A stretch of 58,618 nucleotides of DNA from an uncultured bacterium (GCA_964630875.1 CAZVXF010000008.1:1-58618), one strand, 5' to 3'. Positions 30,246 to 58,618 are shown, counted from the first letter of the stretch. The notes: generated by a model from the letters alone, not told the origin. Translations and numbers: made by a program.

Positions 30246-31159
30246 TTCGAGACACTCTAGAACTTCTAAAAGAAGAATCGACCATTTTAGCATCGCAAGA
30301 AGATGCGCAGTATTTTCGAACAATTCTCAAAAAATCGATTCTAGCTCCGGTAGTTATTCCATCGATCAAAAAAAAAGTTGCGCAAGACACGGAAACTGCA
30401 CAAATTTCAAGTCTAGAGCAAGCAACCGTTGCCTATGGACAAGACGCGAATGAAGACAAAAAAATTGTTGCAGAATTGCCACAGTCAGACTCAACTGTAT
30501 TTTTGATCAATGGTTCTACGCAAACTCCAAAAGTCAATCAACTGGTTGTTTTAGAAGTGGCGCCAAAAATCACTGTTCATCAAGAACCACCTGCACTGCC
30601 TCCTTCGATCCCACCGAAAAAAACACAAGATGTTCCTCTAGTTGCTTGGAGAAGCGAGTCAACAATTTCTATAGAGCCAGTCAATTTTTCTCATTTAAAA
30701 GCAATCTATCAAAGACTCTTTCCTCAGATGCCTTTGATTCAGACAACCCCAGCAGATGATCAGGCAAAAAAAATTGCCAATCGATGGAAAACAAAAAATC
30801 AAGCTGCACCGATATCGATTTTATACTTTAGTGAACCTGGCCCCCAAAAAGAACTTTTGATAGCAATCACTAAAGCAATCGATGTCTACTTTGGTCCCGC
30901 ACGCTTAATTCAAGCAGAGACCATAGAAAAAGAAAAACAATGGGAAACATTTCTCTCGAGTTCAGCGCTCAAACTCGTGATTGCTTGCGATTATACTCTG
31001 TGGCAGTTGACTGATCTGATGCAATATTTTAAAGAAAAGCCTTCAAGAACCCTTAAAAATGTTCCTCTTTTTCTTTTGCCTGACCTATCGTTATATCTAA
31101 AAGATCCATCATTGAAAAGATCGCTGTGGAAAGCGATTCAGAGAAACGTATGTTCGTAA
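30227..31159 (+). CDS. Conserved chlamydial hypothetical protein upstream of priA, carrying an in-frame MITE
   Basis: C-terminal YLKDPSLKRSLWKAI; overlaps the priA start. Confidence 0.75.
   Translation: MSYASLIRDTLELLKEESTILASQEDAQYFRTILKKSILAPVVIPSIKKKVAQDTETAQISSLEQATVAYGQDANEDKKIVAELPQSDSTVFLINGSTQTPKVNQLVVLEVAPKITVHQEPPALPPSIPPKKTQDVPLVAWRSESTISIEPVNFSHLKAIYQRLFPQMPLIQTTPADDQAKKIANRWKTKNQAAPISILYFSEPGPQKELLIAITKAIDVYFGPARLIQAETIEKEKQWETFLSSSALKLVIACDYTLWQLTDLMQYFKEKPSRTLKNVPLFLLPDLSLYLKDPSLKRSLWKAIQRNVCS
30355..30518 (+). mobile_element. ERIC-like palindromic MITE, copy 2, in frame within a CDS
   Basis: CCATCGATCAAAAAAAAAGTTG...CAACTGTATTTTTGATCAATGG inverted ends (19/22); family motifs GACACGGAA...CACAGTC and CAAGACGCGAATGAAGAC. 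Confidence 0.72.
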
Positions 31160-48445: not shown

Positions 48446-50152
48446 TCATGGCGATTTCCTTGCGACCAAAATTGAAGAGACCTGATTGAGTGGATAAATG
48501 GTTTCTAAAGAAAAGCCTGCTTGGTTGAATAAACTGGAAAAATGAGCAAGACTCCGTTCGTATCCACCAGTCATGACCAGCATATTTAGATTTAACACTC
48601 CTCCAGAACCAGTCGCTTCATCGAGAATATTTTCAATAATATAGACCCGATTCTGTGGATGGTTCGACAGTCTTGAATGAACTTTCTCTAAAATCTCGAT
48701 TGCTTTGCGATCAGGCCAATCATGGATGACACGCGACAAAACAGCGCTTTCAACGCTAAAGACAGGCCAATTTTCGAAAAAATTTCCCGAAATAAGTTTT
48801 GTTCTGTCTTTTAGCTCATCAGGTATTTGTACGAGGTTTACTACGTTTGGAAGATCAAAAAGAAGGCCCGTGAGACTGGGATTTTTATTTAAAATTTCGA
48901 ACAGCAAAGTTCCATTTGATCCACCCACATCGAGGATTGATCGATGAACACTTAAATCGATCAAAGAACAAAATGCTTGATAATCTCTTTTCGCATACTT
49001 GGATAAGACGGTGTGATATAACTGGCACTTGTCTTCATGGTTTTCTAACCAGTCAAACCATCCCATGCCATATAGAGAATCAAACGCAGCTTTTTCTGTT
49101 TTCAAACTTTTCAATAGATGGCGCCAAGAGATAAGATGTTCTTCTTTCCAAAGACTGGCTGCGCCTTTCAGAGAAAAAGGGTGTTGCGAATGAAAAAAGA
49201 CTCCCGTAGCAGTTGCAAACCACTTTCGATCACCTCTTTTTTCAACATACCCCATCTCAAGAAGTGCTTGTAAAAGCTTAATGGTACTTGTTTCTGAAAG
49301 AGAAATGCTTTCTGCAATCTCAGAAGAGGAATTAGGCAAATAGTCAAAAAGGTGAATTTCTATAGCTGTTTGAATCGTGTAAAAACGCCAGTAGGAAACT
49401 AAATCAGCGGATGCAGAATGAAAAGGATCCTCAAGATCTTCCCTAAGAACACCCACTTTCCTCCCCTCTTCATCAATTAAATGGAGAGCGCCGCGGTCTG
49501 TCTCTACACGAGCAACCCCATTATAAAACGGCTCAATATTTTTATAGATCTCGGGATAAATACTTTCTCCTGAGGTATTGACATGAAACCACCCCTTTTC
49601 ATTCTTGGCTCTCGCAAACCCTTTATGGTAGACATCGAGGTCATGAAACCACTTTCCATGCAAAAAAGCACCACTTGGTAAAATATGGGTATAAAATCCG
49701 TGATTATTTTGCACGGTGGCATAACCATCATGAAAATCTCCCACGTAACAAAAGAGATTGGGATAGGCTTTTTTCCCATCTCGATTGATATGAAAATAGT
49801 TCCCTTCAAAATCTTTTACAACGGAGAATTTCTCTTGGAAGTTTCCACACCAGGAATACCTTTCTTTATAGAGCTCTTTTCCATTGGCAAGAATATGAAA
49901 ACATCCCCTTTCAGACTGGACCGCTGCCCGAGCGTCATAAAATCCAAAAACTCGAATATATCTCTCGGGATAGATCGGCTCTCCATTCACGTTGATATGA
50001 AAAGCCCCAGTCTCATCTTTGACAGCGGCAAGACCTGGCTCATGAAATTTGAGAACGGATAAAAATCGAGGCAAATAGGCTCTCTGCCTGTCGATGAGGT
50101 GACAGGATTGATCTTCTGAGATTTCAAACGTTTGCAAGCGTGCTTTCAACAT
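48446..50152 (-). CDS. WG-repeat / O-methyltransferase fusion protein
   Basis: ~6 N-terminal repeats (FHEPGLAAV, FYDARAAV, FHDGYATV...FHI); C-terminal dimerisation region, DVGGSNG, GNFF and SRVIHDW. Confidence 0.85.
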   Translation of the reverse strand: MLKARLQTFEISEDQSCHLIDRQRAYLPRFLSVLKFHEPGLAAVKDETGAFHINVNGEPIYPERYIRVFGFYDARAAVQSERGCFHILANGKELYKERYSWCGNFQEKFSVVKDFEGNYFHINRDGKKAYPNLFCYVGDFHDGYATVQNNHGFYTHILPSGAFLHGKWFHDLDVYHKGFARAKNEKGWFHVNTSGESIYPEIYKNIEPFYNGVARVETDRGALHLIDEEGRKVGVLREDLEDPFHSASADLVSYWRFYTIQTAIEIHLFDYLPNSSSEIAESISLSETSTIKLLQALLEMGYVEKRGDRKWFATATGVFFHSQHPFSLKGAASLWKEEHLISWRHLLKSLKTEKAAFDSLYGMGWFDWLENHEDKCQLYHTVLSKYAKRDYQAFCSLIDLSVHRSILDVGGSNGTLLFEILNKNPSLTGLLFDLPNVVNLVQIPDELKDRTKLISGNFFENWPVFSVESAVLSRVIHDWPDRKAIEILEKVHSRLSNHPQNRVYIIENILDEATGSGGVLNLNMLVMTGGYERSLAHFSSLFNQAGFSLETIYPLNQVSSILVARKSP

Positions 50153-51197
50153 CAGCCTCTTTCTTTTTTCTCATATTACAACCTTTGCATACAGCATGCT
50201 GCATATAGTTTTTCTGCAAATTTTTGTAGGGATCACTATTCCATATTTTTTCCAAAGAAACATCATAGAGATTTCCAAAATCGCCGAGTTTGAGCCGCTC
50301 GTCATTTGGAGCGCAGCATGGGTTGAACCTCCCTTCTGACGAGACCCATGCTTCTTGTCCAAGAAATGGGCAAACCCCTTCGGAAATCAGTTCCCCTGTT
50401 GCTGAATCTTCCAAGCAATAGATGTTCTCTAAAATGACCTTGTCTCCTGAAGGAAGCCTTTCTTTTTCTGCTACATCTATTGCTTTGACGACAATTTCAT
50501 TCCAACGTTGAATCGATTCTTTACTTCTTCTTAGATTTTGCTCTTGCATCTGTTTGGCAAATACCCAAAGGTGGTGACCTTTCACACGATTCACTCCCAA
50601 AGAAGCGGCAAGACGGACCACCTCTGGAAGCTCTTCCAACCCTATTTCCATGAAAGTTAGCTGAAATGTCACACGGCAAAAATTGCCTCCCATTTTTGCA
50701 ACCTCATCGCGCACTCGAATAAAGTCTTTCACATTTTGTAGCCTTTGTTCGAAATTCGATCCAATCATGATCAACTCCGACGTTTTTTTCGTCGATCCAT
50801 TCCACGATATTTTTACATCAGACCCAATGGGGACAATCTTCTCTGCCCACTTTGTCGCACCAATCCCAGGAAAAGTCCCGTTGGTCGTCAGATTGAGTTT
50901 CACACCATACTCGTGGCACATTTGGATGATCTCATCAAAATGGCGAAACAGAAGAGGCTCTCCCATTGTTGATGGAATCATTTCTTTCAAGGGAGATCCT
51001 TTTGCTTCCTCAAGGACTTTACGCAGGAGATGAATATCCATCCGCCTTCGAGGCCGACCTTCCTCTTTTCTTTTGGTTTGACAAGAGCTGTAGATCGAAT
51101 GTTCCTCACACATGATACAGCGAAGATTGCAATCATCAGGATTTGTATCAAATGTGATACGCCAAGGGCCTGGTTTTTCGAGATGTTCGATCTTCAT
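50124..51197 (-). CDS. Radical SAM protein with SPASM/twitch domain
   Basis: CNLRCIMC, MGEPL, TTNG and C-terminal CPF..PCC..CKGC. Confidence 0.92.
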   Translation of the reverse strand: MKIEHLEKPGPWRITFDTNPDDCNLRCIMCEEHSIYSSCQTKRKEEGRPRRRMDIHLLRKVLEEAKGSPLKEMIPSTMGEPLLFRHFDEIIQMCHEYGVKLNLTTNGTFPGIGATKWAEKIVPIGSDVKISWNGSTKKTSELIMIGSNFEQRLQNVKDFIRVRDEVAKMGGNFCRVTFQLTFMEIGLEELPEVVRLAASLGVNRVKGHHLWVFAKQMQEQNLRRSKESIQRWNEIVVKAIDVAEKERLPSGDKVILENIYCLEDSATGELISEGVCPFLGQEAWVSSEGRFNPCCAPNDERLKLGDFGNLYDVSLEKIWNSDPYKNLQKNYMQHAVCKGCNMRKKKEADVESTLANV

Positions 51198-52500
51198 GCT
51201 TTTTCCTCTGTTTGATTGCGATACTGTACAGCTTAACTACTTGTTCAACATGTGTTTGGATACTAGGAATACGGCGGTCATCTGATTGAAGATACCCACC
51301 ATTGCCGATTTTTAAAGCAATCTGAGGATCAGAAACGATTCTTGTCATTTGCTCTGCTAGACTTTTTGGATTTCGAAAGTTAAATAACAATCCATTCATT
51401 TCATGATGAACATATTCCCCCATCCCCCCAAAGTCGGCCGTGATAATGGGAACTTTTGCTTCTAAAGCCTCATGAATGACAAGGGGTGAATTTTCTCCCC
51501 AAATAGAAGGGACAACGATCGCATCGACATGGTTAAATACCTCTTCGATCAGCATTTGATTTCGATAGCTTCCCATCCAAAAAATACGACTCTGAGCGAC
51601 CGGGTCCATTGTCATAATGTAAGACTGTAACGATTGAGTAAATGGCTGTACGGGAGCTCCCCAAATTTTAAGCTGCGCATTTTGATAGGTTTCTTTGAAT
51701 GCCTGTAAAAGATGAAAAATCCCTTTTGCTTGTTTATGGGTGCCAATGTAGCCAAAAACAAAATCTTTCTCTTTTTTTCGATTTCTTCCCATGAGCCTTT
51801 CTCGCTGAAACCCATAATCGAGGTAGACAATTTTGGAAATGTCCACATCGAAATCTTTGACAAATCGGTTCATTAAGTAGCGTGAAGGTGCAATAAAAAG
51901 GTCCACCAAGGATGTGATTTCTCGAACATGCTCCATCCGTTTTCCAACCCAGTTTGTCCAATACTTAATGTCCTCTTGATCTTCTGGACTTGAAAAATAA
52001 CGCCAGTAACACTGCTTGGCACATTTTTCATCTTGTTGAGAATCGCAAGATGGATAAAGATCTTCTGTCTTAGAATGAATTCCCTGCAAAAATTGACCAC
52101 GAGGGCACATGAGCCAAAAATCATGCAGAGTAAATACAACCGGAATGTTTCTATAATTAGCTTCGAAAACTAAAGAAGTTGAAAGATGATTTAAATGCCC
52201 AACATGAACAACATCGGGCTCACATGCGTCCAAGAGCTGTGAGAACGCTCGATCCACTTCAGGATGCCTATACCCATCCTTCCCATGAGCCATGTTTATC
52301 AAACAAATTTTGATCTCTTGGCACATTGGATCAAACTCCCAATCCATAGAGTATTCTTGTTTATACGCATTTTCTTGTCGTGTGAATACAATAACCTCAT
52401 GGCCCTGTTTAGCTAATTCGTGACACAAAGTTTGCGAATAGATCTCTGAGCCCGCGTTGTATCGGGTGGGATACCCATGAATAACCTTCAAAATCTTCAT
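51148..52500 (-). CDS. GT4 family glycosyltransferase with Cys-rich insert
   Basis: HGYP..AGSE, TLHDFWLMCPRG and PSIWGENSPLVIHEA. Confidence 0.92.
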   Translation of the reverse strand: MKILKVIHGYPTRYNAGSEIYSQTLCHELAKQGHEVIVFTRQENAYKQEYSMDWEFDPMCQEIKICLINMAHGKDGYRHPEVDRAFSQLLDACEPDVVHVGHLNHLSTSLVFEANYRNIPVVFTLHDFWLMCPRGQFLQGIHSKTEDLYPSCDSQQDEKCAKQCYWRYFSSPEDQEDIKYWTNWVGKRMEHVREITSLVDLFIAPSRYLMNRFVKDFDVDISKIVYLDYGFQRERLMGRNRKKEKDFVFGYIGTHKQAKGIFHLLQAFKETYQNAQLKIWGAPVQPFTQSLQSYIMTMDPVAQSRIFWMGSYRNQMLIEEVFNHVDAIVVPSIWGENSPLVIHEALEAKVPIITADFGGMGEYVHHEMNGLLFNFRNPKSLAEQMTRIVSDPQIALKIGNGGYLQSDDRRIPSIQTHVEQVVKLYSIAIKQRKKHEDRTSRKTRPLAYHI

Positions 52501-53036
52501 AACTTCTTTTATTCAGACGATTCGGGTCGAAATGCTAACTAAAAAAAACTTTTTACACCATAAAAAACACCCCCTCGAGCAGGTTCACTTCTTTCACCAG
52601 CTTCTCGAAGAAAACATTCACAGGTTGTTTTTCTCAATTCGACAACCCAAAAAAGCTGACACTTTTTTTCTGCATTACTAAAGGAAACATGCCAAGCTCT
52701 TGATCAATTCATCGCTCTTCCCATGCCTAAGCCGGGCGACGGCGATCTAGATGTACATTTTATCCTTTTGAATCTTATTACTCTAAAAGCTCAAGAACAA
52801 CGTTTTAGAGGGAATCAGGAAATTGAGCTGACTCTCACTCTGTCTGCTCTGCCCCTCCTGAAGAAAGTGAAAGTAAACAATTATTCTAAAGCAATCAGCT
52901 ACTTTCAGCGTTATAACCCTAATGGGGGGATTGAGTAAATCTTTCGGCCATTGAACAAAAAACCACTTGACCTGATCCACAGAAACAATAGAGGTACAAA
53001 ATTCTCGAGGTGAAAAAGCCATTTATGTCCCTTATG

Positions 53037-53064
53037 GGAATTAAAAATGGCTCCATTCGTCCGA
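53037..53064. repeat. Array repeat R1 (flank only)
   Basis: GGAATTAAAAATGGCTCCATTCGTCCGA versus GGATCAAAAAYGGCTC.A.TC.TCCGA in R4/R5. Confidence 0.7.
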
Positions 53065-53266
53065 ATTAATTAGATGTTTTGAGAAATACGACCCCTTCTT
53101 TTTCAAACGATTTGTCGATGTTTTGATAAGGAATACGCGTAGGTCACTTATAATCAGCAATATGCACCAAACACGCCCTCACAAAATAGTAATTATTTAT
53201 GCATTGAAAAATAAATAAAATAAATGGTATAATTAAACTTTATAATTAATATTAATTAAGGCTTAA

Positions 53267-54727
53267 ATGATCTCCTCAATTAGATCTGGATATAGCAATC
53301 GTTTAACAAGTGCATGTATAGCTACCTGCTCAGTCTCACTTAAGAACTGTAGTACTATTGCAAAACTTTCGTTGAATGCTCTCTATGAGAGGAAATCACG
53401 ACTCATCCCTATTAGACAGGAAATGGTATGCATTCAAGATGAATTGGCTGCAACAATCAAGGAGAGTACTGAGCAATCAAGGCAAATAGATGCTGATTTA
53501 GAAAATCATCGAAAGGAAATTCATCGTCGAACAGAACATCCTAACGCCTCTTTCTTGGAGCCAAGCAAGTTGTCTTCAAAAAATAACGACTGGAATCATA
53601 GAGATAACATCCCACTTTATTTGATAATTGAAATTATTGTAGTTGCAACGTGTTTTTATAGATGTTATCAATATCAAAAACATTGTAAAGAAATCATAGA
53701 TCTCTCATCCTCAGAAAATTTGCCAAACCTTCGAAACAGAGTATGCGTTCCAATTTTCATATCGGATACAGACGCTATACTCTATGGTCTCTTTGTAAAT
53801 CTGGGAGCCCCCCATTTTGGGATAAGAGAGTTAGATTCTATGGGGGTAGTCCCCATTATTCGAAAGATCTCTCACCCAGAAGAAGCGCTTTCTATATTGG
53901 ATCAATTAAGATCTCAAAACAATGAGATCCCCATTTTGATTTTGTTGGGGCATGGTAACACACACAGCATAGAAATGGGAGGAGGGAAAACATTGAATTC
54001 TAACCTCCTTGCACGCGCGCCACTTTCACCTAATGCGCATATCATTCTGTATAGTTGCTCTACAGCACAGGAAACACCCAATTTTTATTCTTTGGCAAGA
54101 AAAATTTCTTTGTTGAATCCAGATGTTTTAGTCAGTGCTTCTCGAAGAAATGTCTGTGCAGGTCTCCCTTGGGAACCCTTCGGTATTTCTTTCAGGAAGG
54201 ACCCCTCCGGAAAACTTTTGGCTAAAATTTATATGCCCGATGAGTTCGGGACCAATCAAGTCACTCAATACAAAAATGGCCGCTATCAAACCGAAGGAGA
54301 TGGCCAAATTTCTCTAGCAATGAGATATTGCTTAGGAAAAGTAGCAAAAGTATGTCCAATAGTAGATGCATTCTTTCCTATGAGTACCCCTGTTGAAAAA
54401 TCAATACCGCCTGGGGAAATAGAATCAGCCCTCTTCCAAGTAGCCTCTTGCCTTACGAATCCTTTTTACAAGAGCCAAGAGTTCTGTCGACGGATTCGTG
54501 CATGTGAAGTGAACAATTCAGAAACAAAAGTCACTCAATTAGCGAGAAAAACTTCTCTTATTATGTCCTGGATTGGATGGACTACTTTAGCATTAATGAC
54601 TACCTTACCAGGCTTTGCTTGCTTCGCACTATTAACATGGATGCGAACTAAAACCTCCTTAAAACTTAAAGAAAATTCCGAGCTAAGACCTTTTAGAACT
54701 AGGTATACAGCAATAGAAAACTCATGA
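53267..54727 (+). CDS. Membrane-anchored protein with putative clan CD (caspase/CHAT/C80-like) protease domain
   Basis: ILILLGHG...IILYSCST; coiled coil and hydrophobic segments. Confidence 0.65.
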   Translation: MISSIRSGYSNRLTSACIATCSVSLKNCSTIAKLSLNALYERKSRLIPIRQEMVCIQDELAATIKESTEQSRQIDADLENHRKEIHRRTEHPNASFLEPSKLSSKNNDWNHRDNIPLYLIIEIIVVATCFYRCYQYQKHCKEIIDLSSSENLPNLRNRVCVPIFISDTDAILYGLFVNLGAPHFGIRELDSMGVVPIIRKISHPEEALSILDQLRSQNNEIPILILLGHGNTHSIEMGGGKTLNSNLLARAPLSPNAHIILYSCSTAQETPNFYSLARKISLLNPDVLVSASRRNVCAGLPWEPFGISFRKDPSGKLLAKIYMPDEFGTNQVTQYKNGRYQTEGDGQISLAMRYCLGKVAKVCPIVDAFFPMSTPVEKSIPPGEIESALFQVASCLTNPFYKSQEFCRRIRACEVNNSETKVTQLARKTSLIMSWIGWTTLALMTTLPGFACFALLTWMRTKTSLKLKENSELRPFRTRYTAIENS

Positions 54728-54763
54728 TTGGAACCGACCATCATGGATTCCCTCACTTGAGTG

Positions 54764-54870
54764 AAAAAACGTAGAGCTATTTCGTCCGATAGATTATCAG
54801 AAACCGTATCTTTTTGGTGACGCATACCGTCACTTCAGACAAGCTGGTTTTTCAATGCGAAAAACATCGC
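54764..54870. repeat. Array repeat R2 (degenerate)
   Basis: TTCGTCCGATAGATT..AACCGTATCTTTTTG..hairpin..AAGCTGGTT..AAAACATCGC follows the R4 layout. Confidence 0.6.
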
Positions 54871-54871
54871 A

Positions 54872-55030
54872 ATACTGAAATGAATTCAAAAATTGAAATT
54901 TTGACAAAGAGGCGGCGCATATTTTGGTGTTTGCAGCGAATGACCATTGGACTTGTCCAAGGCATGAGCGAAAACCCAAAATATGCTGCCAAGTCCAACG
55001 CAGTCAAAAACCAATTTTTGAGTTTATTAT
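54872..55030 (+). mobile_element. ERIC-like palindromic MITE, copy 3
   Basis: ATGAATTCAAAAATTG...CAATTTTTGAGTTTAT ends; TTGACAAAGAGG...CAACGCAGTCAA; GCGAATGACCATTG..CAAGGCATGAGCG. Confidence 0.8.
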
Positions 55031-55792
55031 TGAAAAAGTTGCGAACACGCATTTGTATACTTATTTAAAGGAGCACTCAATTTCACAAGCAATTACTCTG
55101 ATAATCCCTGTTATTTGGAATATAATTGTTTGTGTACATAATACTCATAAAGTTTGCGATATAGAATATGATGAAGACAAGTGGATTGAGCATGTTCTGC
55201 ACACACCTTTTGCTCTTGCTGATGCAAGTGAAGAGATTAGAGGCAATAGAAAAATAGTTCTGGCTGCTGTTCAGAGAAGTAGCTGGAATCTTCAATGGGC
55301 GTGTAAAGAGCTTCTAAACGATCCTTATTTTATGCTCGCCGCTATCCAAAAAAATGCAACAGCTTTTGAATGGGCAAGCGAAGAGCTCCGTGGTGACGAA
55401 GAAGTGGTTTTTCCGCGATTCAACAGAACGGCACAGCACTTGAGTGGGCAAGCGAAGAACTTCGTAGCAATCGAGAAATCGTCCTAACCGCTGTCTTAGA
55501 AGATGGTGATGCAATTTTCTATGCCAGCGAAGAGCTTCGTGATGACAAGGAGATTGCTCTGATCGCAATCAACCAAGCTTACGATACATTATCTGCTTGC
55601 AAGGCTCTCAGAAATGATAAGGAAGTAGTTCTTGTTGCAGTTCAACAAAGCGGCTGGGCTCTAGAATGGGCAAGTGAAGAGCTTCGAGGGGACAGAGAAA
55701 TCGTCCTTATCGCTATTCAGACTTCTCCCTGGGCGCGGAATTTGATACTTCAACTTGCAAGCAAGGAACTTAGAGAAAAATTTTCAATCTGA
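55031..55792 (+). pseudogene. DUF4116-repeat gene, 5'-truncated and frameshifted
   Basis: ASEELRxDxEIVLxAV repeats in two frames, joined at the T5 run 55408-55412; stop 55790-92; native start not evident. Confidence 0.82.
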
Positions 55793-55810
55793 ATTATTTA
55801 ACGCCTTCTT

Positions 55811-55974
55811 TATACCGAAATAACCTGAAGAATCGGTTTTTGACTGCGTCGTTTTTTTCTCAAAAATGGCATTCTCACTCGTGCCTTGCGATTCCGCAAT
55901 GGTCACTCGCTCCGAATGCAATTTTTGAGAAACTTCCTTGTCAAATTCCCGATTCTTCAGGTTATTTCGGTATA
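55811..55974 (-). mobile_element. ERIC-like palindromic MITE, copy 4 (best preserved, 164 bp)
   Basis: Perfect 26-bp TIR TATACCGAAATAACCTGAAGAATCGG; nested inner stems; TA at both ends. Confidence 0.9.
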
Positions 55975-55977
55975 TCC

Positions 55978-56032
55978 AACCGGACTCCTTTCTGGCGAAG
56001 CGAGCCGATGCGGCTCGCCCTCGTTCAGAAAG
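55978..56032. repeat. Array repeat R3 (left part lost at the MITE)
   Basis: 55979-56032 is 48/54 identical to 58333-58386. Confidence 0.85.
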
Positions 56033-56069
56033 TTAACGGCTTTTTCGGCCTTTTTGACTCAAGGAGAAG

Positions 56070-57095
56070 CTATTTTTTTTCTCGAATGAGAAGATTAATC
56101 AATGTTAAAGGTTTTACAACAGCTTCCTGTCGACCGTGAATACGAATATCTCCGGCATAATCTCTTAAATATTTCTCTTTTTGAGCGAGAGGAAAATAGG
56201 TTCGCGCCCAGGGGTCGCATAGAATACTGTCTTGGCTATTTCTCGGACCAATAATAATAAAGCTGTGATCACCAAATAGAATTGAATAAGATTCGCAAGT
56301 TGTTGCGTGAAGGATTTCCGGATGTTTATCATTGAGGAGTTTTAAACCCAGCCTTGCAATCTCCCGACAATTACCTTCGCCAATATGATTATGAGACGAT
56401 AACCTTTTCCTCAAAGTTTCTTGATATTCGGAATCGCTCATTTGATCAACATCAAGTTTACCCCGAAAATAATTCATTGGTAGGCGATCTTCAGTGAGCT
56501 TTAAGATTTCTTGAGCGATAGAAATATTTTTTCTCATCTCAGGCGAAATCGCTTGAGGAAGATTTGCGAGATATTTGCTTCCGACTAAGATAGTGTGTGT
56601 TTCGGCTTGAACAGAAAGGCTTTTAACAAGCAAGGAAACACCAAATACGCCAAAGCAGGCTCTTGCAACGCGTACAAAAATAGATGATGATTTCCTATAA
56701 AAAAGAGCTGTCGCTAAAGGATAAATGCTAGCTAAAGATAAAGCAGTCCAATTTAGAACATCACTCTGTTTTTTTGTGTTATCGCATTTTAGTACTTTAT
56801 AACTTACGGTTTGCGGAATTCTATAACTTGTCTCACTTTGAGGAGTTTCTGATTTAATAGCAGATGTAATAGGAAAAAATAGCAAATCCGATTCCGACTC
56901 CGGAAATAACATTTTTTGAACAGATTCTAGGGTAACTTCATAGGAATCGGGCCAGACAATTTCTTTTTCTGGTCCATGAATCACTCTCAAAGACTTAGTA
57001 TATCCTCTTCTTAACCTCACTAGAGGTTCCGGATAATATTTTCCGAAAGCTGCAGCACAGCCAGTAAGAATAAATTTATCTATAAAAAAAGACAT
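56070..57095 (-). CDS. Putative effector with Cys-His-Asp papain/transglutaminase-like domain (HopX/AvrPphE-like)
   Basis: GNCRE, DHSFIIIG and CDPW; hydrophobic hairpin; AGGT before ATG 57095. Confidence 0.7.
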   Translation of the reverse strand: MSFFIDKFILTGCAAAFGKYYPEPLVRLRRGYTKSLRVIHGPEKEIVWPDSYEVTLESVQKMLFPESESDLLFFPITSAIKSETPQSETSYRIPQTVSYKVLKCDNTKKQSDVLNWTALSLASIYPLATALFYRKSSSIFVRVARACFGVFGVSLLVKSLSVQAETHTILVGSKYLANLPQAISPEMRKNISIAQEILKLTEDRLPMNYFRGKLDVDQMSDSEYQETLRKRLSSHNHIGEGNCREIARLGLKLLNDKHPEILHATTCESYSILFGDHSFIIIGPRNSQDSILCDPWARTYFPLAQKEKYLRDYAGDIRIHGRQEAVVKPLTLINLLIREKK

Positions 57096-57242
57096 TTTAC
57101 CTGTTTTTTGTGAAGATTTTAACATGAAAACAGAAAAAAAAATAAATACTAAAAAACGAAACATCTGACGAGATCTATCTAAAAAATTATATTAAATTGA
57201 TAATAACTATCTAATTTGTTTTTTTTCATTGACAGCCCTGAT

Positions 57243-57371
57243 CGGGATCAAAAATGGCTCTACTCTTCCGATTGGTTGCAGGTAACCGGACTCCTTTTGC
57301 CCGGGCGAGCGAAACGCTCGTCCCGTCGGGCAAAAGCCGGTTCGTCGGGTTTTGCTCACGCAAAACATCGC
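57243..57371. repeat. Array repeat R4
   Basis: 57243-57293 is 43/51 identical to 58291-58341; AACCGG-ACTC-CTTTTGCCCG...CGGGCAAAAG-CCGGTT stem. Confidence 0.88.
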
Positions 57372-57372
57372 C

Positions 57373-57546
57373 TATATCGAAATGAATTCAAAAGTTGGAA
57401 TTTTGTCTAGGAGACGGCGCAGATTTTGGCGTCTGTCTGCGGAAACGAGAAAAAACATGTTTTTTCTCGAGGAGCAGGTGAACGAATGTGAACCGGGTCG
57501 GACGACCACGCCGATAGGCAAGGCGCGAATGAAGACCCAAAATATG
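57373..57546 (+). mobile_element. ERIC-like MITE, copy 5 (extra nested hairpin, right end lost)
   Basis: TATATCGAAATGAATTCAAAAGTTGG..CGGCGCAGATTTTGG..CCAAAATATG aligns to 54872-54985. Confidence 0.75.
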
Positions 57547-57570
57547 AGAAGCGGTAAAAGAGGCACCATT

Positions 57571-57603
57571 TAAAAATAGAAGAGTCAGAAACTGACTCCT
57601 CTA
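57571..57603 (-). terminator. Intrinsic terminator
   Basis: GAGTCAG-aaa-CTGACTC stem, with a T-run on the minus strand. Confidence 0.65.
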
Positions 57604-57621
57604 CTCCCTAATTGGCACAAG

Positions 57622-58206
57622 TTAGAACAGATTCTGATAAGGGAATTTCTCCTCAGCGATTTTAACTACGGCTTTTAGTCGTTCCTCTTTTTGGATGAGA
57701 ATCCTTATTGTACTCCTGAAATTTCCAAAGGAAATAGAAGTCACCTCACAACTTTCCATTAACATAGCAGCTGCCGATAAGTTTAGCATTTTAGTCTTCA
57801 TTTCGATTTGGTTTTCAAAAAAAGTCTTTAATTCTGGATCTGTAGTGTTTGATAAAATTGCAATGTCGGAATCGATTTCTTTCCTTAGACGCTGAAACTG
57901 TACCCTATGGAATTCTTCATACAACTTAGCCTGCGAGCTATCCTCATGCGAAGTTTTAATGGCAGTAGCGTTCCACTTTGCAAATTCTGCTCGTATATAG
58001 TCTTTTCTAGCTTTATCTACCTTTAAATCTGCCCCTTTCTGCACTAAGGAGGCTAAAAAGGGAAGATTTGTATACCTCTCTTCAGCTCCCTTGGGAGCTG
58101 GATTCGAAATCCCTAAATCTAAAAGTTTAAAAACTTCTATTGGTCCCAGAGTTGTTATTGCACTTAGAAAGGGTCTGCTGTTCGCAGTCATTGAGCTTCT
58201 TATCAT
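57622..58206 (-). CDS. Hypothetical helical protein
   Basis: 194-aa ORF, AGGT ribosome-binding site, TGATATAAT promoter and own terminator. Confidence 0.72.
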   Translation of the reverse strand: MIRSSMTANSRPFLSAITTLGPIEVFKLLDLGISNPAPKGAEERYTNLPFLASLVQKGADLKVDKARKDYIRAEFAKWNATAIKTSHEDSSQAKLYEEFHRVQFQRLRKEIDSDIAILSNTTDPELKTFFENQIEMKTKMLNLSAAAMLMESCEVTSISFGNFRSTIRILIQKEERLKAVVKIAEEKFPYQNLF

Positions 58207-58290
58207 AGTAAATACCTGTTGTTTTATTATTTAATAAACGTAATTATATCAGTTATCTTGATATTAATTCAAGCATTAAATATTTGAATA

Positions 58291-58507
58291 CCGGATCAAA
58301 AACGGCTCAATTCGTCCGATTGATTGCCGGTGACCGGACTCCTTTCTGGCGAAACGAGACGAGACGGCTCGTCCTCGTCCAGAAAGCCGGCTACGGGCTG
58401 GCGCCCTTCGCTTCTCGTCCTAAAAAAGCTTCGCTTTTTTTCACCGGCAAAAACAAAGAGAAAAAGCCGGGAGGCTTTTTCTCTTTGTTTTTGCAGGCAA
58501 TCGGACG
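58291..58507. repeat. Array repeat R5 (most complete; tRNA-like fold on the minus strand)
   Basis: GCCGGTGA/TCACCGGC stem, CCGG/CCGG stem, internal hairpins, and outer CGTCCGATTG/CAATCGGACG inverted repeat. Confidence 0.88.
58447..58494. terminator. Perfect 22-bp hairpin (terminator-like)
   Basis: GCAAAAACAAAGAGAAAAAGCC-ggga-GGCTTTTTCTCTTTGTTTTTGC. Confidence 0.6.
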
Positions 58508-58517
58508 TAATCAGAAC

Positions 58518-58618
58518 GTGCGACACGAGGTCGCTGGAGGGAATTGTCTCTATCATGGGACCGCTCCTACTGCGGAGTGAATCTAGGGCCCTGAATAAAG
58601 CAGCGGGCCCGACAATAT
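58518..58618 (+). mobile_element. Possible 5' end of a group II intron (truncated by the window)
   Basis: GTGCGACACGAGGTCGC start followed by GC-rich hairpins (ATTGTC...GACAAT, GGGCCC...GGGCCC). Confidence 0.4.

Follow-up and report, generated by a model that had tools for sequence, protein, structure and literature searches.

The stretch of DNA analysed here (GCA_964630875.1 CAZVXF010000008.1:1-58618, an uncultured bacterium; 58,618 nt, hereafter the window) is the entire contig C8 of the assembly G000, which comprises 52 contigs and 1.37 Mb and is 90.9% complete; two further contigs of this assembly, C43 (L001) and C6 (L002), are drawn on below. The right-hand end of the window carries an array in which repeats, R1 to R5, alternate with genes, and which an initial annotation had described as an integron-like cassette array. 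A scan for open reading frames (ORFs) across the four intervals bore out the claim of one gene per interval, with exactly one ORF between each two successive repeats, and these cargo genes occur on both strands. The repeats and cargo genes are, from left to right:

53000–53064, plus strand: R1, 90.6% identical over 64 nt to C43 2776–2839 (blastn), with 21 amino acids at 90% (tblastn)
53267–54727, plus strand: 486-aa orphan cargo gene, no Pfam match, self-match only
54777–54871, plus strand: R2, decayed recombinase end, decayed core, hairpin and module mC, 77% identical to R5
54897–55487 and 55397–55792 (two open frames), plus strand: frameshifted DUF4116-repeat gene, Pfam PF13475, E 1.7e-15
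55979–56032, plus strand: R3, last 9 nt of the core and hairpin mB, 89% identical to R5 and 94% to C43
56070–57164, minus strand: 364-aa orphan cargo gene, no Pfam match, self-match only
57227–57373, plus strand: R4, recombinase end (~50 nt), core at 57278–57293 (2 mismatches), hairpin mB and module mC
57622–58206, minus strand: 194-aa orphan cargo gene, no Pfam match
58287–58518, plus strand: R5, full composite site, 92% identical over 225 nt to C43 2813–3031 (blastn), with inverted repeats I3 and I10

The repeats and their composite structure

A repeat search of 51000–58618 recovered one family on a single strand (D4, at 53020–53064, 57227–57271 and 58275–58319) together with three pairs, D7 (55979–56032 versus 58333–58386, 89% of 54 nt), D8 (57245–57297 versus 58293–58345, 87% of 53 nt) and D13 (54781–54806 versus 58311–58336, 77%). 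This confirmed related same-strand sequences at all five annotated places, far beyond chance, and D7 is the R3/R5 match of 48 in 54 nt reported at the outset. They are not, as had been proposed with it, five copies of one repeat: mean column identity in a five-copy alignment is just 54%, because the copies retain different pieces of a longer unit, and R1 and R3 share nothing. A single repeated unit was ruled out by this alignment and by the finding that a 62-nt match between R2 and R4 (D5) is sequence of a miniature inverted-repeat transposable element (MITE), unrelated to the attachment (att) repeat.

The repeats are overlapping pieces of a composite site. Its full form (R5, R4) joins the last 40–50 nt of a recombinase gene to 16 nt copied from the 3' end of tRNA-Leu(CAA), hereafter the core, and to conserved hairpins. 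R1 is a 64-nt remnant of the last ~21 recombinase codons (the P arm) and has neither core nor hairpins, while R2 matches module mC of C6 from 54846 onwards. R5 runs in the order recombinase end (~40 nt), exact core (58326–58341), hairpin mB, variant middle, terminator hairpin (58444–58497) and, from 58494, an attL-type site made of a diverged core copy and a conserved P' motif, which also occurs at the homologous places C43 3025 and C6 65309. R4 would be an attR-type junction into a structured module, the S unit, described below. Composed of a recombinase 3' end, a tRNA-end copy and hairpins, the repeats are without attC architecture, as annotated; the window likewise holds no recombinase gene, as had been stated, although coding sequence of a recombinase makes up the left part of the repeat.

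The core is the reverse complement of the last 16 nt of tRNA-Leu(CAA). With up to 3 mismatches allowed it has 8 matches in the 1.37-Mb assembly, 6 of which fall in this locus (C8 57278, C8 58326, C43 2846, C6 65503, C6 65854 and tRNA-Leu(CAA) itself at C6 61452), the others being tRNA-Leu(TAG) on C4 and one 3-mismatch match on C2. The five copies beyond the tRNA itself have 0–2 mismatches and are oriented like its own end. A blastn search of the five repeat copies against the assembly returned further copies at C43 2776–3031, C6 65303–65871 and 61454–61524, and C4 4399–4465; the repeat is thus confined to tRNA loci rather than scattered genome-wide, and the tRNA-like recombination site suggested initially holds up, in that the repeats carry a tRNA 3'-end copy and appear to mark recombination-site junctions. 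The age gradient suggested along the array did not. Identity to the C43 copy is 91% for R1, 94% for R3, 92% for R5 and 81% for R4 (R2 was not found), and the leftward copies are more truncated, not more diverged.

A large serine recombinase family and its tRNA targets

The last 55 nt of C8 are the first 55 nt of C43, and the last 55 nt of C43 are the reverse-complemented end of C6; in an end-overlap comparison each was the sole link for those ends, and by these overlaps the contigs are ordered C8, C43 and C6 (reversed). ARAGORN places tRNA-Leu(caa) at C6 61385–61468 (L002 6386–6469), on the minus strand in window orientation and ~9.35 kb to the right of the window end. A minus-strand tRNA-Leu to the right, as first predicted, is therefore present and reached via the contig end overlaps, whereas a tRNA scan of the window itself returned only a tmRNA at 3–369. 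Between window and tRNA lie, on C43, a group II intron (truncated), a pair of small ORFs, a DUF6294 gene and a recombinase fragment and, on C6, two Bro-N genes (one broken, one intact), a DUF4431 gene and others; the intervals beyond the window are not single-gene.

The fragment (C43 2461–2853) encodes 130 aa of a recombinase C-terminus, has its stop codon within the core and is 95% identical to residues 363–492 of P0001 (492 aa). It aligns only to these C-terminal residues and itself carries none of PF00239, PF07508 and PF13408; full-length homologues (~490–540 aa, among 62 proteins found) carry all three (Resolvase, Recombinase and zinc-ribbon), and the enzyme is therefore probably a large serine recombinase. 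The tyrosine recombinase predicted near the tRNA-Leu thus gives way to a different family; PF00589 has two matches in G000 (C12 16990–17490 and C30 12967–13470), in ~300-aa proteins away from C8, C43 and C6. Remnants of 21, 15 and 12 codons were recognised at R1, R4 and R5 by tblastn. In place of a functional integrase the island holds the 130-aa C-terminal fragment and these shorter remnants, and no PF00239 catalytic domain was found in the G000 assembly at its stated completeness.

A further remnant of this recombinase family, 65 aa at 60% identity, lies at C12 2486–2680, on a contig that adjoins the left end of the window and ~2.5 kb from the tmRNA at the window start. It points to the tmRNA gene as another integration site, now decayed; tmRNA is a target of intact members of the family in other genomes.

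The same arrangement recurs in relatives. The repeat was found in 12 of 41 related genomes (G000 included). In five of them (G004, G002, G016, G006 and G005) the match ends exactly at the core end, with tRNA-Leu(caa) overlapping on the opposite strand, and recombinase end plus core abut tRNA-Leu(caa) in G016, G005, G004, G002 and G073. Homologues of P0001 are present in 18 of 61 family genomes (G000 included), four of them full length, and abut tRNA-Leu, tRNA-Tyr, tmRNA or tRNA-Phe. From public genomes we kept 80 homologue loci, belonging to Chlamydiota, Verrucomicrobia and candidate-phyla bacteria. At least 110 nt are available past the gene in 70 of these, and in 43 of the 70 the match is followed by a convergent tRNA or tmRNA whose start lies between −60 and +80 nt of its end; the recombinase gene often overlaps its target tRNA or tmRNA by 5–6 nt. 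Bro-N/DinD was considered as a hallmark first gene of the elements and dropped, as it is present in just 3 of the 80 loci.

A left-hand site, formed by a ~14-nt copy of the target 3' end followed by a conserved 17-nt motif, was seen 4–9 kb upstream of the recombinase gene in Tyr, tmRNA and Leu loci and in Ser/Glu loci of the candidate phyla radiation, which implies elements of roughly 6–11 kb. G000 has three such sites (58494 at the end of R5, C43 3025 and C6 65309) and a degenerate fourth (C6 64025). The units R1–R4 have no left-hand motif, the site at 58494 being the only one on C8, and the unit from 58494 to C43 2861 alone has both ends, with a truncated recombinase gene. Since they lack an attL-type site, the window cassettes look like reduced remains of 6–11-kb multi-gene elements.

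In window orientation, four kinds of junction can be distinguished. Terminator–core–tRNA is the empty-looking target, terminator–core–hairpin is made by the S unit (C6 65503 and 65854), recombinase end–core–tRNA is found in relatives, and recombinase end–core–hairpin occurs at R4, R5, C43, the decayed R2 and the locus L080. The last of these is the product that would be expected from integration into the tRNA-end copy of an S unit. Matching left-hand sites come after each terminator (58494, C43 3001 and C6 65326), and L080 repeats the layout of G000, with recombinase–core–hairpin, then terminator–core–hairpin, then terminator–core–tRNA. Another locus, L089 1379–7550 (JAZKBL010000042.1), has three perfect and two degenerate left-hand sites 1.1–1.7 kb apart, each behind its own terminator hairpin and upstream of a recombinase fragment, and forms a second cassette-like array of Leu type.

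These data bear on whether the locus is an active integron-like platform, on which single-gene cassettes with sites of their own are captured one by one at the tRNA-like site by a dedicated recombinase. Several features speak for such a platform: the single gene in every interval, with a promoter-like site of its own; sites that share one orientation and are restricted to the locus; the cassette-like left-hand-site arrays in L089 and L073, 1.1–1.7 kb apart upstream of the recombinase gene; and the S unit, a long imperfect palindrome with extruded hairpins that loosely resembles a folded recombination site. We nevertheless regard it as very improbable. The assembly has no IntI-type gene, its PF00589 proteins lying only on C12 and C30, no PF00239 catalytic domain, and neither attI nor attC. 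The window cassettes have no left-hand site and retain the right-hand scar only, so that a circle would hold no complete site; the scars contain variable lengths of recombinase coding sequence (~20 to 64 nt), as deletion of the gene would leave, and intact relatives are 6–11-kb multi-gene elements. No circle or excision joint was seen, the Logan contigs from three runs of one study (contigs only, one run being possibly the source) showing no excised single-cassette joint; joints in these contigs have sides of 21–37 nt, those below 30 nt being of a kind that repeats or other organisms commonly produce, and the one of 37 nt linking opposite strands.

Comparison with relatives instead points to an island. 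In the same-genus genome G001, orthologues of C8 47477–48328 and 44392–45975 lie downstream of tRNA-Leu(caa), the former ~2.5 kb from the tRNA, and synteny on the 5' side of the tRNA extends to G005, G007, G002 and G004. Together these place between ~15 kb (counted from R1) and 20 kb (counted from 48.4 kb) of inserted DNA behind the tRNA in G000, and the synteny of the G001 flank supports the contig order given above. As in tRNA islands generally, an intact target tRNA lies at one end, direct copies of its 3' end are present and the region is absent from a relative with conserved flanks. The array would then be the distal part of a 15–20-kb tRNA-anchored island built by tandem integration and decay. 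Breakpoints within the repeat had been anticipated in relatives, and the DNA likeness of contig C171 of G002 to the window does start exactly within the core (its last 4 nt), at the place of R3. The terminator hairpin was also considered as the native terminator of the tRNA in all genomes, an idea rejected because G001 and G003 have other sequences there.

A structured unit behind tRNA genes

The hairpin module of the repeat, the S unit (~150–190 nt), also lies behind tRNA-Leu(tag) on C4 and tRNA-Phe on C10, and each time its tRNA-end copy matches the adjacent tRNA. Read in the direction of the tRNA, it consists of a terminator hairpin, an inverted copy of the acceptor strand, a hairpin, an inverted T-arm copy, two hairpins and a direct copy of the last ~17 nt of the tRNA, and the acceptor and T-stem sequences of the adjacent tRNA recur in its closing helix. 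For ten S units from six tRNA or tmRNA kinds, RNAalifold gave 42 pairs, 26 with compensatory changes. Paired cells amount to 95.1%, versus 77.7 ± 1.4% in shuffles (0 of 500 reach the observed value) and 37–51% with slid partners. Deriving the structure from that very alignment works in its favour, yet the values with slid partners lie far below.

A covariance model of the unit, which shares the label R1 with the first repeat, has 13 matches in G000, all at three tRNA loci. They include three copies outside its training set, namely R4 (57276–57412, minus strand, E 1.2e-10), R5 (58324–58449, minus strand, E 2.1e-11) and the C43 copy; R2 was not detected. Matches occur in 52 of 103 family genomes (G000 included) and in 9 of 141 genomes of an order-wide sample, 7 of these 9 being among the 134 from other families. 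Among the best 28 S loci, 24 lie behind a same-strand tRNA or tmRNA by 8–48 nt (245 nt in one case), with Phe, Leu, Lys, Pro, Met, Thr, Ser and Tyr tRNAs and tmRNA as neighbours, and three of the remaining four are cut by a contig end. Between tRNA and S unit lies a hairpin with A- and T-tracts on both sides, which would terminate either strand. Rfam gave no match above chance for the repeat or the S unit on either strand (50000–58618 and S loci), and near the S loci it recovered only tRNA, tmRNA and group II intron models.

Much of this would suit an S unit that is primarily a tRNA-like small RNA gene or a structure for tRNA 3' processing or termination, the repeats then being degraded copies that mobile elements happen to hit. 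The compensatory changes in 26 of 42 pairs, pairing far above both shuffled and slid controls, a closing helix that reproduces the acceptor and T-stem of the adjacent tRNA, the bidirectional terminator-like hairpin and the constant position behind tRNA or tmRNA genes (24 of 28) all agree with such a function. We consider it quite unlikely as the primary explanation of the repeats, as no Rfam family matches, the unit is patchy within the genus (four relatives have no S at tRNA-Leu(TAG)), pairing counts fit an RNA and single-stranded or cruciform DNA equally, and the recombinase remnants would be left unaccounted for. A clean empty-site comparison at tRNA-Leu(TAG) was attempted with these four S-less same-genus relatives and abandoned, since their downstream flanks all differ.

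S units also form tandem arrays with no element in them, a pair on C10 and, in G022, a row of four with a period of 216 nt. Those in G022 stand head to tail (G022:C5:213263-214091) in a genome with at least 30 matches, from which it follows that S can expand into long tandem arrays. In two-copy arrays the terminator–core–hairpin junction mimics a tRNA end with its terminator. Could local duplication alone have built the array, with a tRNA-end, terminator and hairpin unit multiplied by slippage or unequal crossing-over and genes arriving through homologous recombination among repeats and MITEs? The pure S arrays at tRNA-Phe on C10 and in G022, terminator hairpins that are more alike within G000 than between genomes, MITEs at the same position in three units (as duplication after insertion would give) and the presence of S in genomes without a recombinase match (G007, G022, G019 and G041) would all fit. 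S duplication cannot, however, produce the stretch of recombinase end that lies left of the core at R1, R2, R4, R5 and C43, nor the left-hand motif common to tmRNA- and Tyr-type elements elsewhere, and the cargo genes have no paralogues in G000. We therefore rate local duplication as unlikely, if less so than a functional RNA.

The S unit may be a new kind of element that settles immediately behind tRNA and tmRNA genes, either a miniature partner without a recombinase, moved in trans by the tDNA-specific serine integrases, or a tRNA-like RNA gene, although we hold this to be possible rather than probable. If it is, the unit carries inverted and direct tRNA 3'-end copies around three hairpins and thereby regenerates the tRNA-end-plus-terminator site, and its tandem growth would turn one tRNA site into expandable landing pads, explaining how elements can be stacked here by serine integrases. 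Our literature search, in a partial library, found nothing on this recombinase family, on the S unit or on chlamydial serine recombinases at tRNA genes; integrases of the kind may be listed in supplementary tables of the TIGER/Islander and tycheposon papers.

Cargo, serial insertion and known systems

Besides the repeats and cargo genes listed above, the array and its flanks contain the following features:

48446–52500, minus strand: O-methyltransferase, radical SAM/SPASM and GT4 glycosyltransferase genes (Pfam)
54872–55024, plus strand: MITE copy, 81% identical over 182 nt to a C6 copy, outside the att repeat
55811–55974, minus strand: MITE copy with perfect 26-nt terminal inverted repeats (I2, 100% complementary)
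57374–57546, plus strand: MITE copy (D5, D11; match to the MITE query)
58519–58618 and on into C43, plus strand: group II intron (truncated), 5' end, with Rfam match RF02012 on C43 1–131 cut at the 5' end

The cargo is strain-specific, as judged for the 364-aa, 486-aa and GT4 genes against family and same-genus genomes. In a word-seeded search of 5.8 billion proteins the 486-aa and 364-aa products matched only themselves, and neither has a paralogue in G000. The 486-aa protein contains a His/Cys pair (HG and SC contexts) and, close to each end, hydrophobic segments; its Atlas structure rows, to CHAT, DUF6642 and Peptidase_C25 over residues 155–340, stay below the bar of the service. Of the 102 other family genomes, 9 contain weak matches to it, all limited to the C-terminal ~100 aa. 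These residues (window 54330–54680) include a two-lobed hydrophobic stretch and are 31–42% identical to the C-termini of ~285–450-aa proteins in the 9 genomes, which suggests a common membrane-anchoring module on varied heads. The 364-aa protein has a Cys...His...Asp pattern and Atlas rows to Peptidase_C93 and Transglut_core (TM 0.29–0.50, again below the bar), and a transglutaminase-like cysteine peptidase is a lead only; it is found in 4 of 103 family genomes (its own included), one of which, G002, retains residues 314–363 alone. With no Pfam match and structure rows below the bar, the labels 'clan CD protease-like' and 'HopX-like' first given to cargo of the array are likewise no more than leads. 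The DUF4116 pseudogene stands as annotated, on a Pfam match and a frame break around 55397–55487, and has 74-nt internal repeats (D1–D3).

The suggestion that the intact genes have their own upstream regions is upheld in part. The best three promoter-like matches in 52500–58618 sit just upstream of the three intact genes, among them 53204–53233 (the best, at the 486-aa gene) and 58272–58243 (at the 194-aa gene), but the total of 16 matches is not above that of shuffles (12.7 ± 4.1). To the left, the cluster at 48446–52500, whose O-methyltransferase carries WG repeats, lies between the conserved flank and R1. Its GT4 gene (51148–52500) was not found in any of the five same-genus genomes searched, and the cluster is possibly the oldest island cargo or else a separate accessory (modification) block.

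The sequences at 54872–55024, 55811–55974 and 57374–57546 have the features of MITEs. The family is non-coding and ~150–180 nt long, with 26-nt terminal inverted repeats and copies on at least 14 contigs, and reaches a summed contig depth of 373–1558 in three soil metagenome runs. Three copies sit at an identical position within S units, and a partial copy lies at 30411–30471. The group II intron sits within the attL-type site, ~20 nt past the terminator hairpin, and begins with GTGCG, which presumably fits the group II intron 5' consensus; of its reverse transcriptase only the N-terminal domain is present (RVT_N, C43 522–1040). In G020 (L138) a group II intron lies ~1.2 kb beyond the end of the S unit. 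A different dispersed repeat of ~150–175 nt lies just upstream of tRNA-Leu(caa) (L002 6211–6385, on C6), with more than 30 copies in the same-genus genome G007 and several in G001.

Taken together, the repeats are probably junction scars of elements that a large serine recombinase with specificity for tRNA and tmRNA 3' ends inserted serially downstream of tRNA-Leu(CAA). The host is most likely an environmental chlamydia, and part of the elements were most likely inserted into a previously undescribed, tRNA-mimicking repeat. Crossover would take place at the very 3' end of the tRNA gene, and later elements would enter the tRNA itself or the copies of its end found in S units, the S unit acting as a spare attB. 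Deletions would then remove recombinase genes and left-hand sites, leaving in the window one gene with its own promoter between successive right-hand scars. The array is probably immobile now, the assembly having no catalytic domain of a serine recombinase, unless the enzyme acts in trans or is encoded in the unassembled part. The serial accretion at a tRNA-derived site proposed initially is thus right in outline and the best reading of the tRNA-end copies, the C171 breakpoint and the insertion relative to a same-genus genome; the integron-like system proposed with it is not retained.

Several points weigh against serial insertion followed by deletion. Large serine integrases normally need an intact attB, and hybrid sites are not recombined without a directionality factor, so that tandem stacking hinges on the proposed role of S units as attB. 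All four window cassettes lack a left-hand site and contain exactly one gene each, a regularity that random deletion does not predict, and the Leu-type left-hand core copy matches the tRNA end at 10 of 14 positions only. Contig adjacency is based on k-mer overlaps and synteny, without spanning reads; at 90.9% completeness an intact recombinase may have been missed, and no recombination was observed among the joints of the Logan contigs. In an alternative arrangement, the whole block from recombinase end to left-hand motif would be one long attP, marking plain tandem copies. Either way, the repeats would be att junctions of a serine-recombinase element family.

Few routes of gene gain are recognised in environmental chlamydiae, and the locus points to one, in which small serine-recombinase elements home to tRNA and tmRNA 3' ends and pile up with strain-specific genes, some of which have the appearance of secreted or membrane effectors. 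The recombinase family keeps one geometry and one left-end motif from Chlamydiota to Verrucomicrobia and candidate-phyla bacteria, runs counter to the usual rule that tRNA sites belong to tyrosine integrases, and offers a natural integrase set with predictable tRNA targets. If S serves as a spare attachment site, it would provide a simple mechanism for building gene arrays.

Among known systems, SCCmec elements are similar in using large serine recombinases at one chromosomal site, at the 3' end of a gene, with direct repeats of ~15–18 nt, and in forming tandem stacks that include recombinase-less pseudo-elements. They differ in recombinase clade and in their target, a protein gene and not a tRNA, and we know of no S-like structured unit in SCCmec. 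With integrons the locus shares co-oriented short gene units, structured repeats as bounds and a fixed anchor adjacent to them; unlike integrons, it has no IntI tyrosine recombinase, attI, Pc or attC, its genes lie in either orientation with their own promoter-like sites, and its repeats are recombinase coding sequence with a tRNA-end copy. The decay-then-accretion scheme described for cis-mobilisable elements (CIMEs) and integrative and conjugative elements (ICEs) in streptococci (review PMC5704250) is comparable, but CIMEs as treated in the cited part of that review keep both attL and attR, whereas the four window units keep the right-hand scar only. Moreover, no conjugation genes were seen here, in contrast to CIME/ICE systems.

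Classical islands in tRNA genes (tDNA islands) likewise show a regenerated target tRNA, a displaced copy of its 3' end, within the island or at its far end, and an integrase beside the tRNA, but integration at tRNA and tmRNA genes is ascribed to tyrosine integrases in the relevant part of the Islander paper (PMC4383910), and here the enzyme is a large serine recombinase. In the portion of the review cited above that concerns them, serine-recombinase elements are said usually to integrate within, and disrupt, protein genes (PMC5704250), and a mycobacterial survey gives tRNA and tmRNA sites for tyrosine systems only, as far as its cited section goes (PMC10654092). A close parallel is with the tycheposon islands of Prochlorococcus, for which the cited portion of the source describes accretion at tRNA genes, partial-tRNA separators and degenerate or fragmented integrases (bioRxiv 10.1101/2020.12.28.424599). 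As in those islands, insertion takes place at a tRNA gene, partial tRNAs separate the units, newcomers push older elements inward, the cargo is small and strain-specific, and fragmented integrases and extra partial tRNAs mark old events. Unlike tycheposons as described there, the locus involves a serine recombinase family only, the stop codon of whose gene lies within the tRNA-end copy, and its separators are a ~150–190-nt structured unit that also stands alone behind many tRNAs. Accretion at tRNA genes is therefore already known, and what stands out here is the tDNA-specific serine recombinase family and, above all, the S unit.

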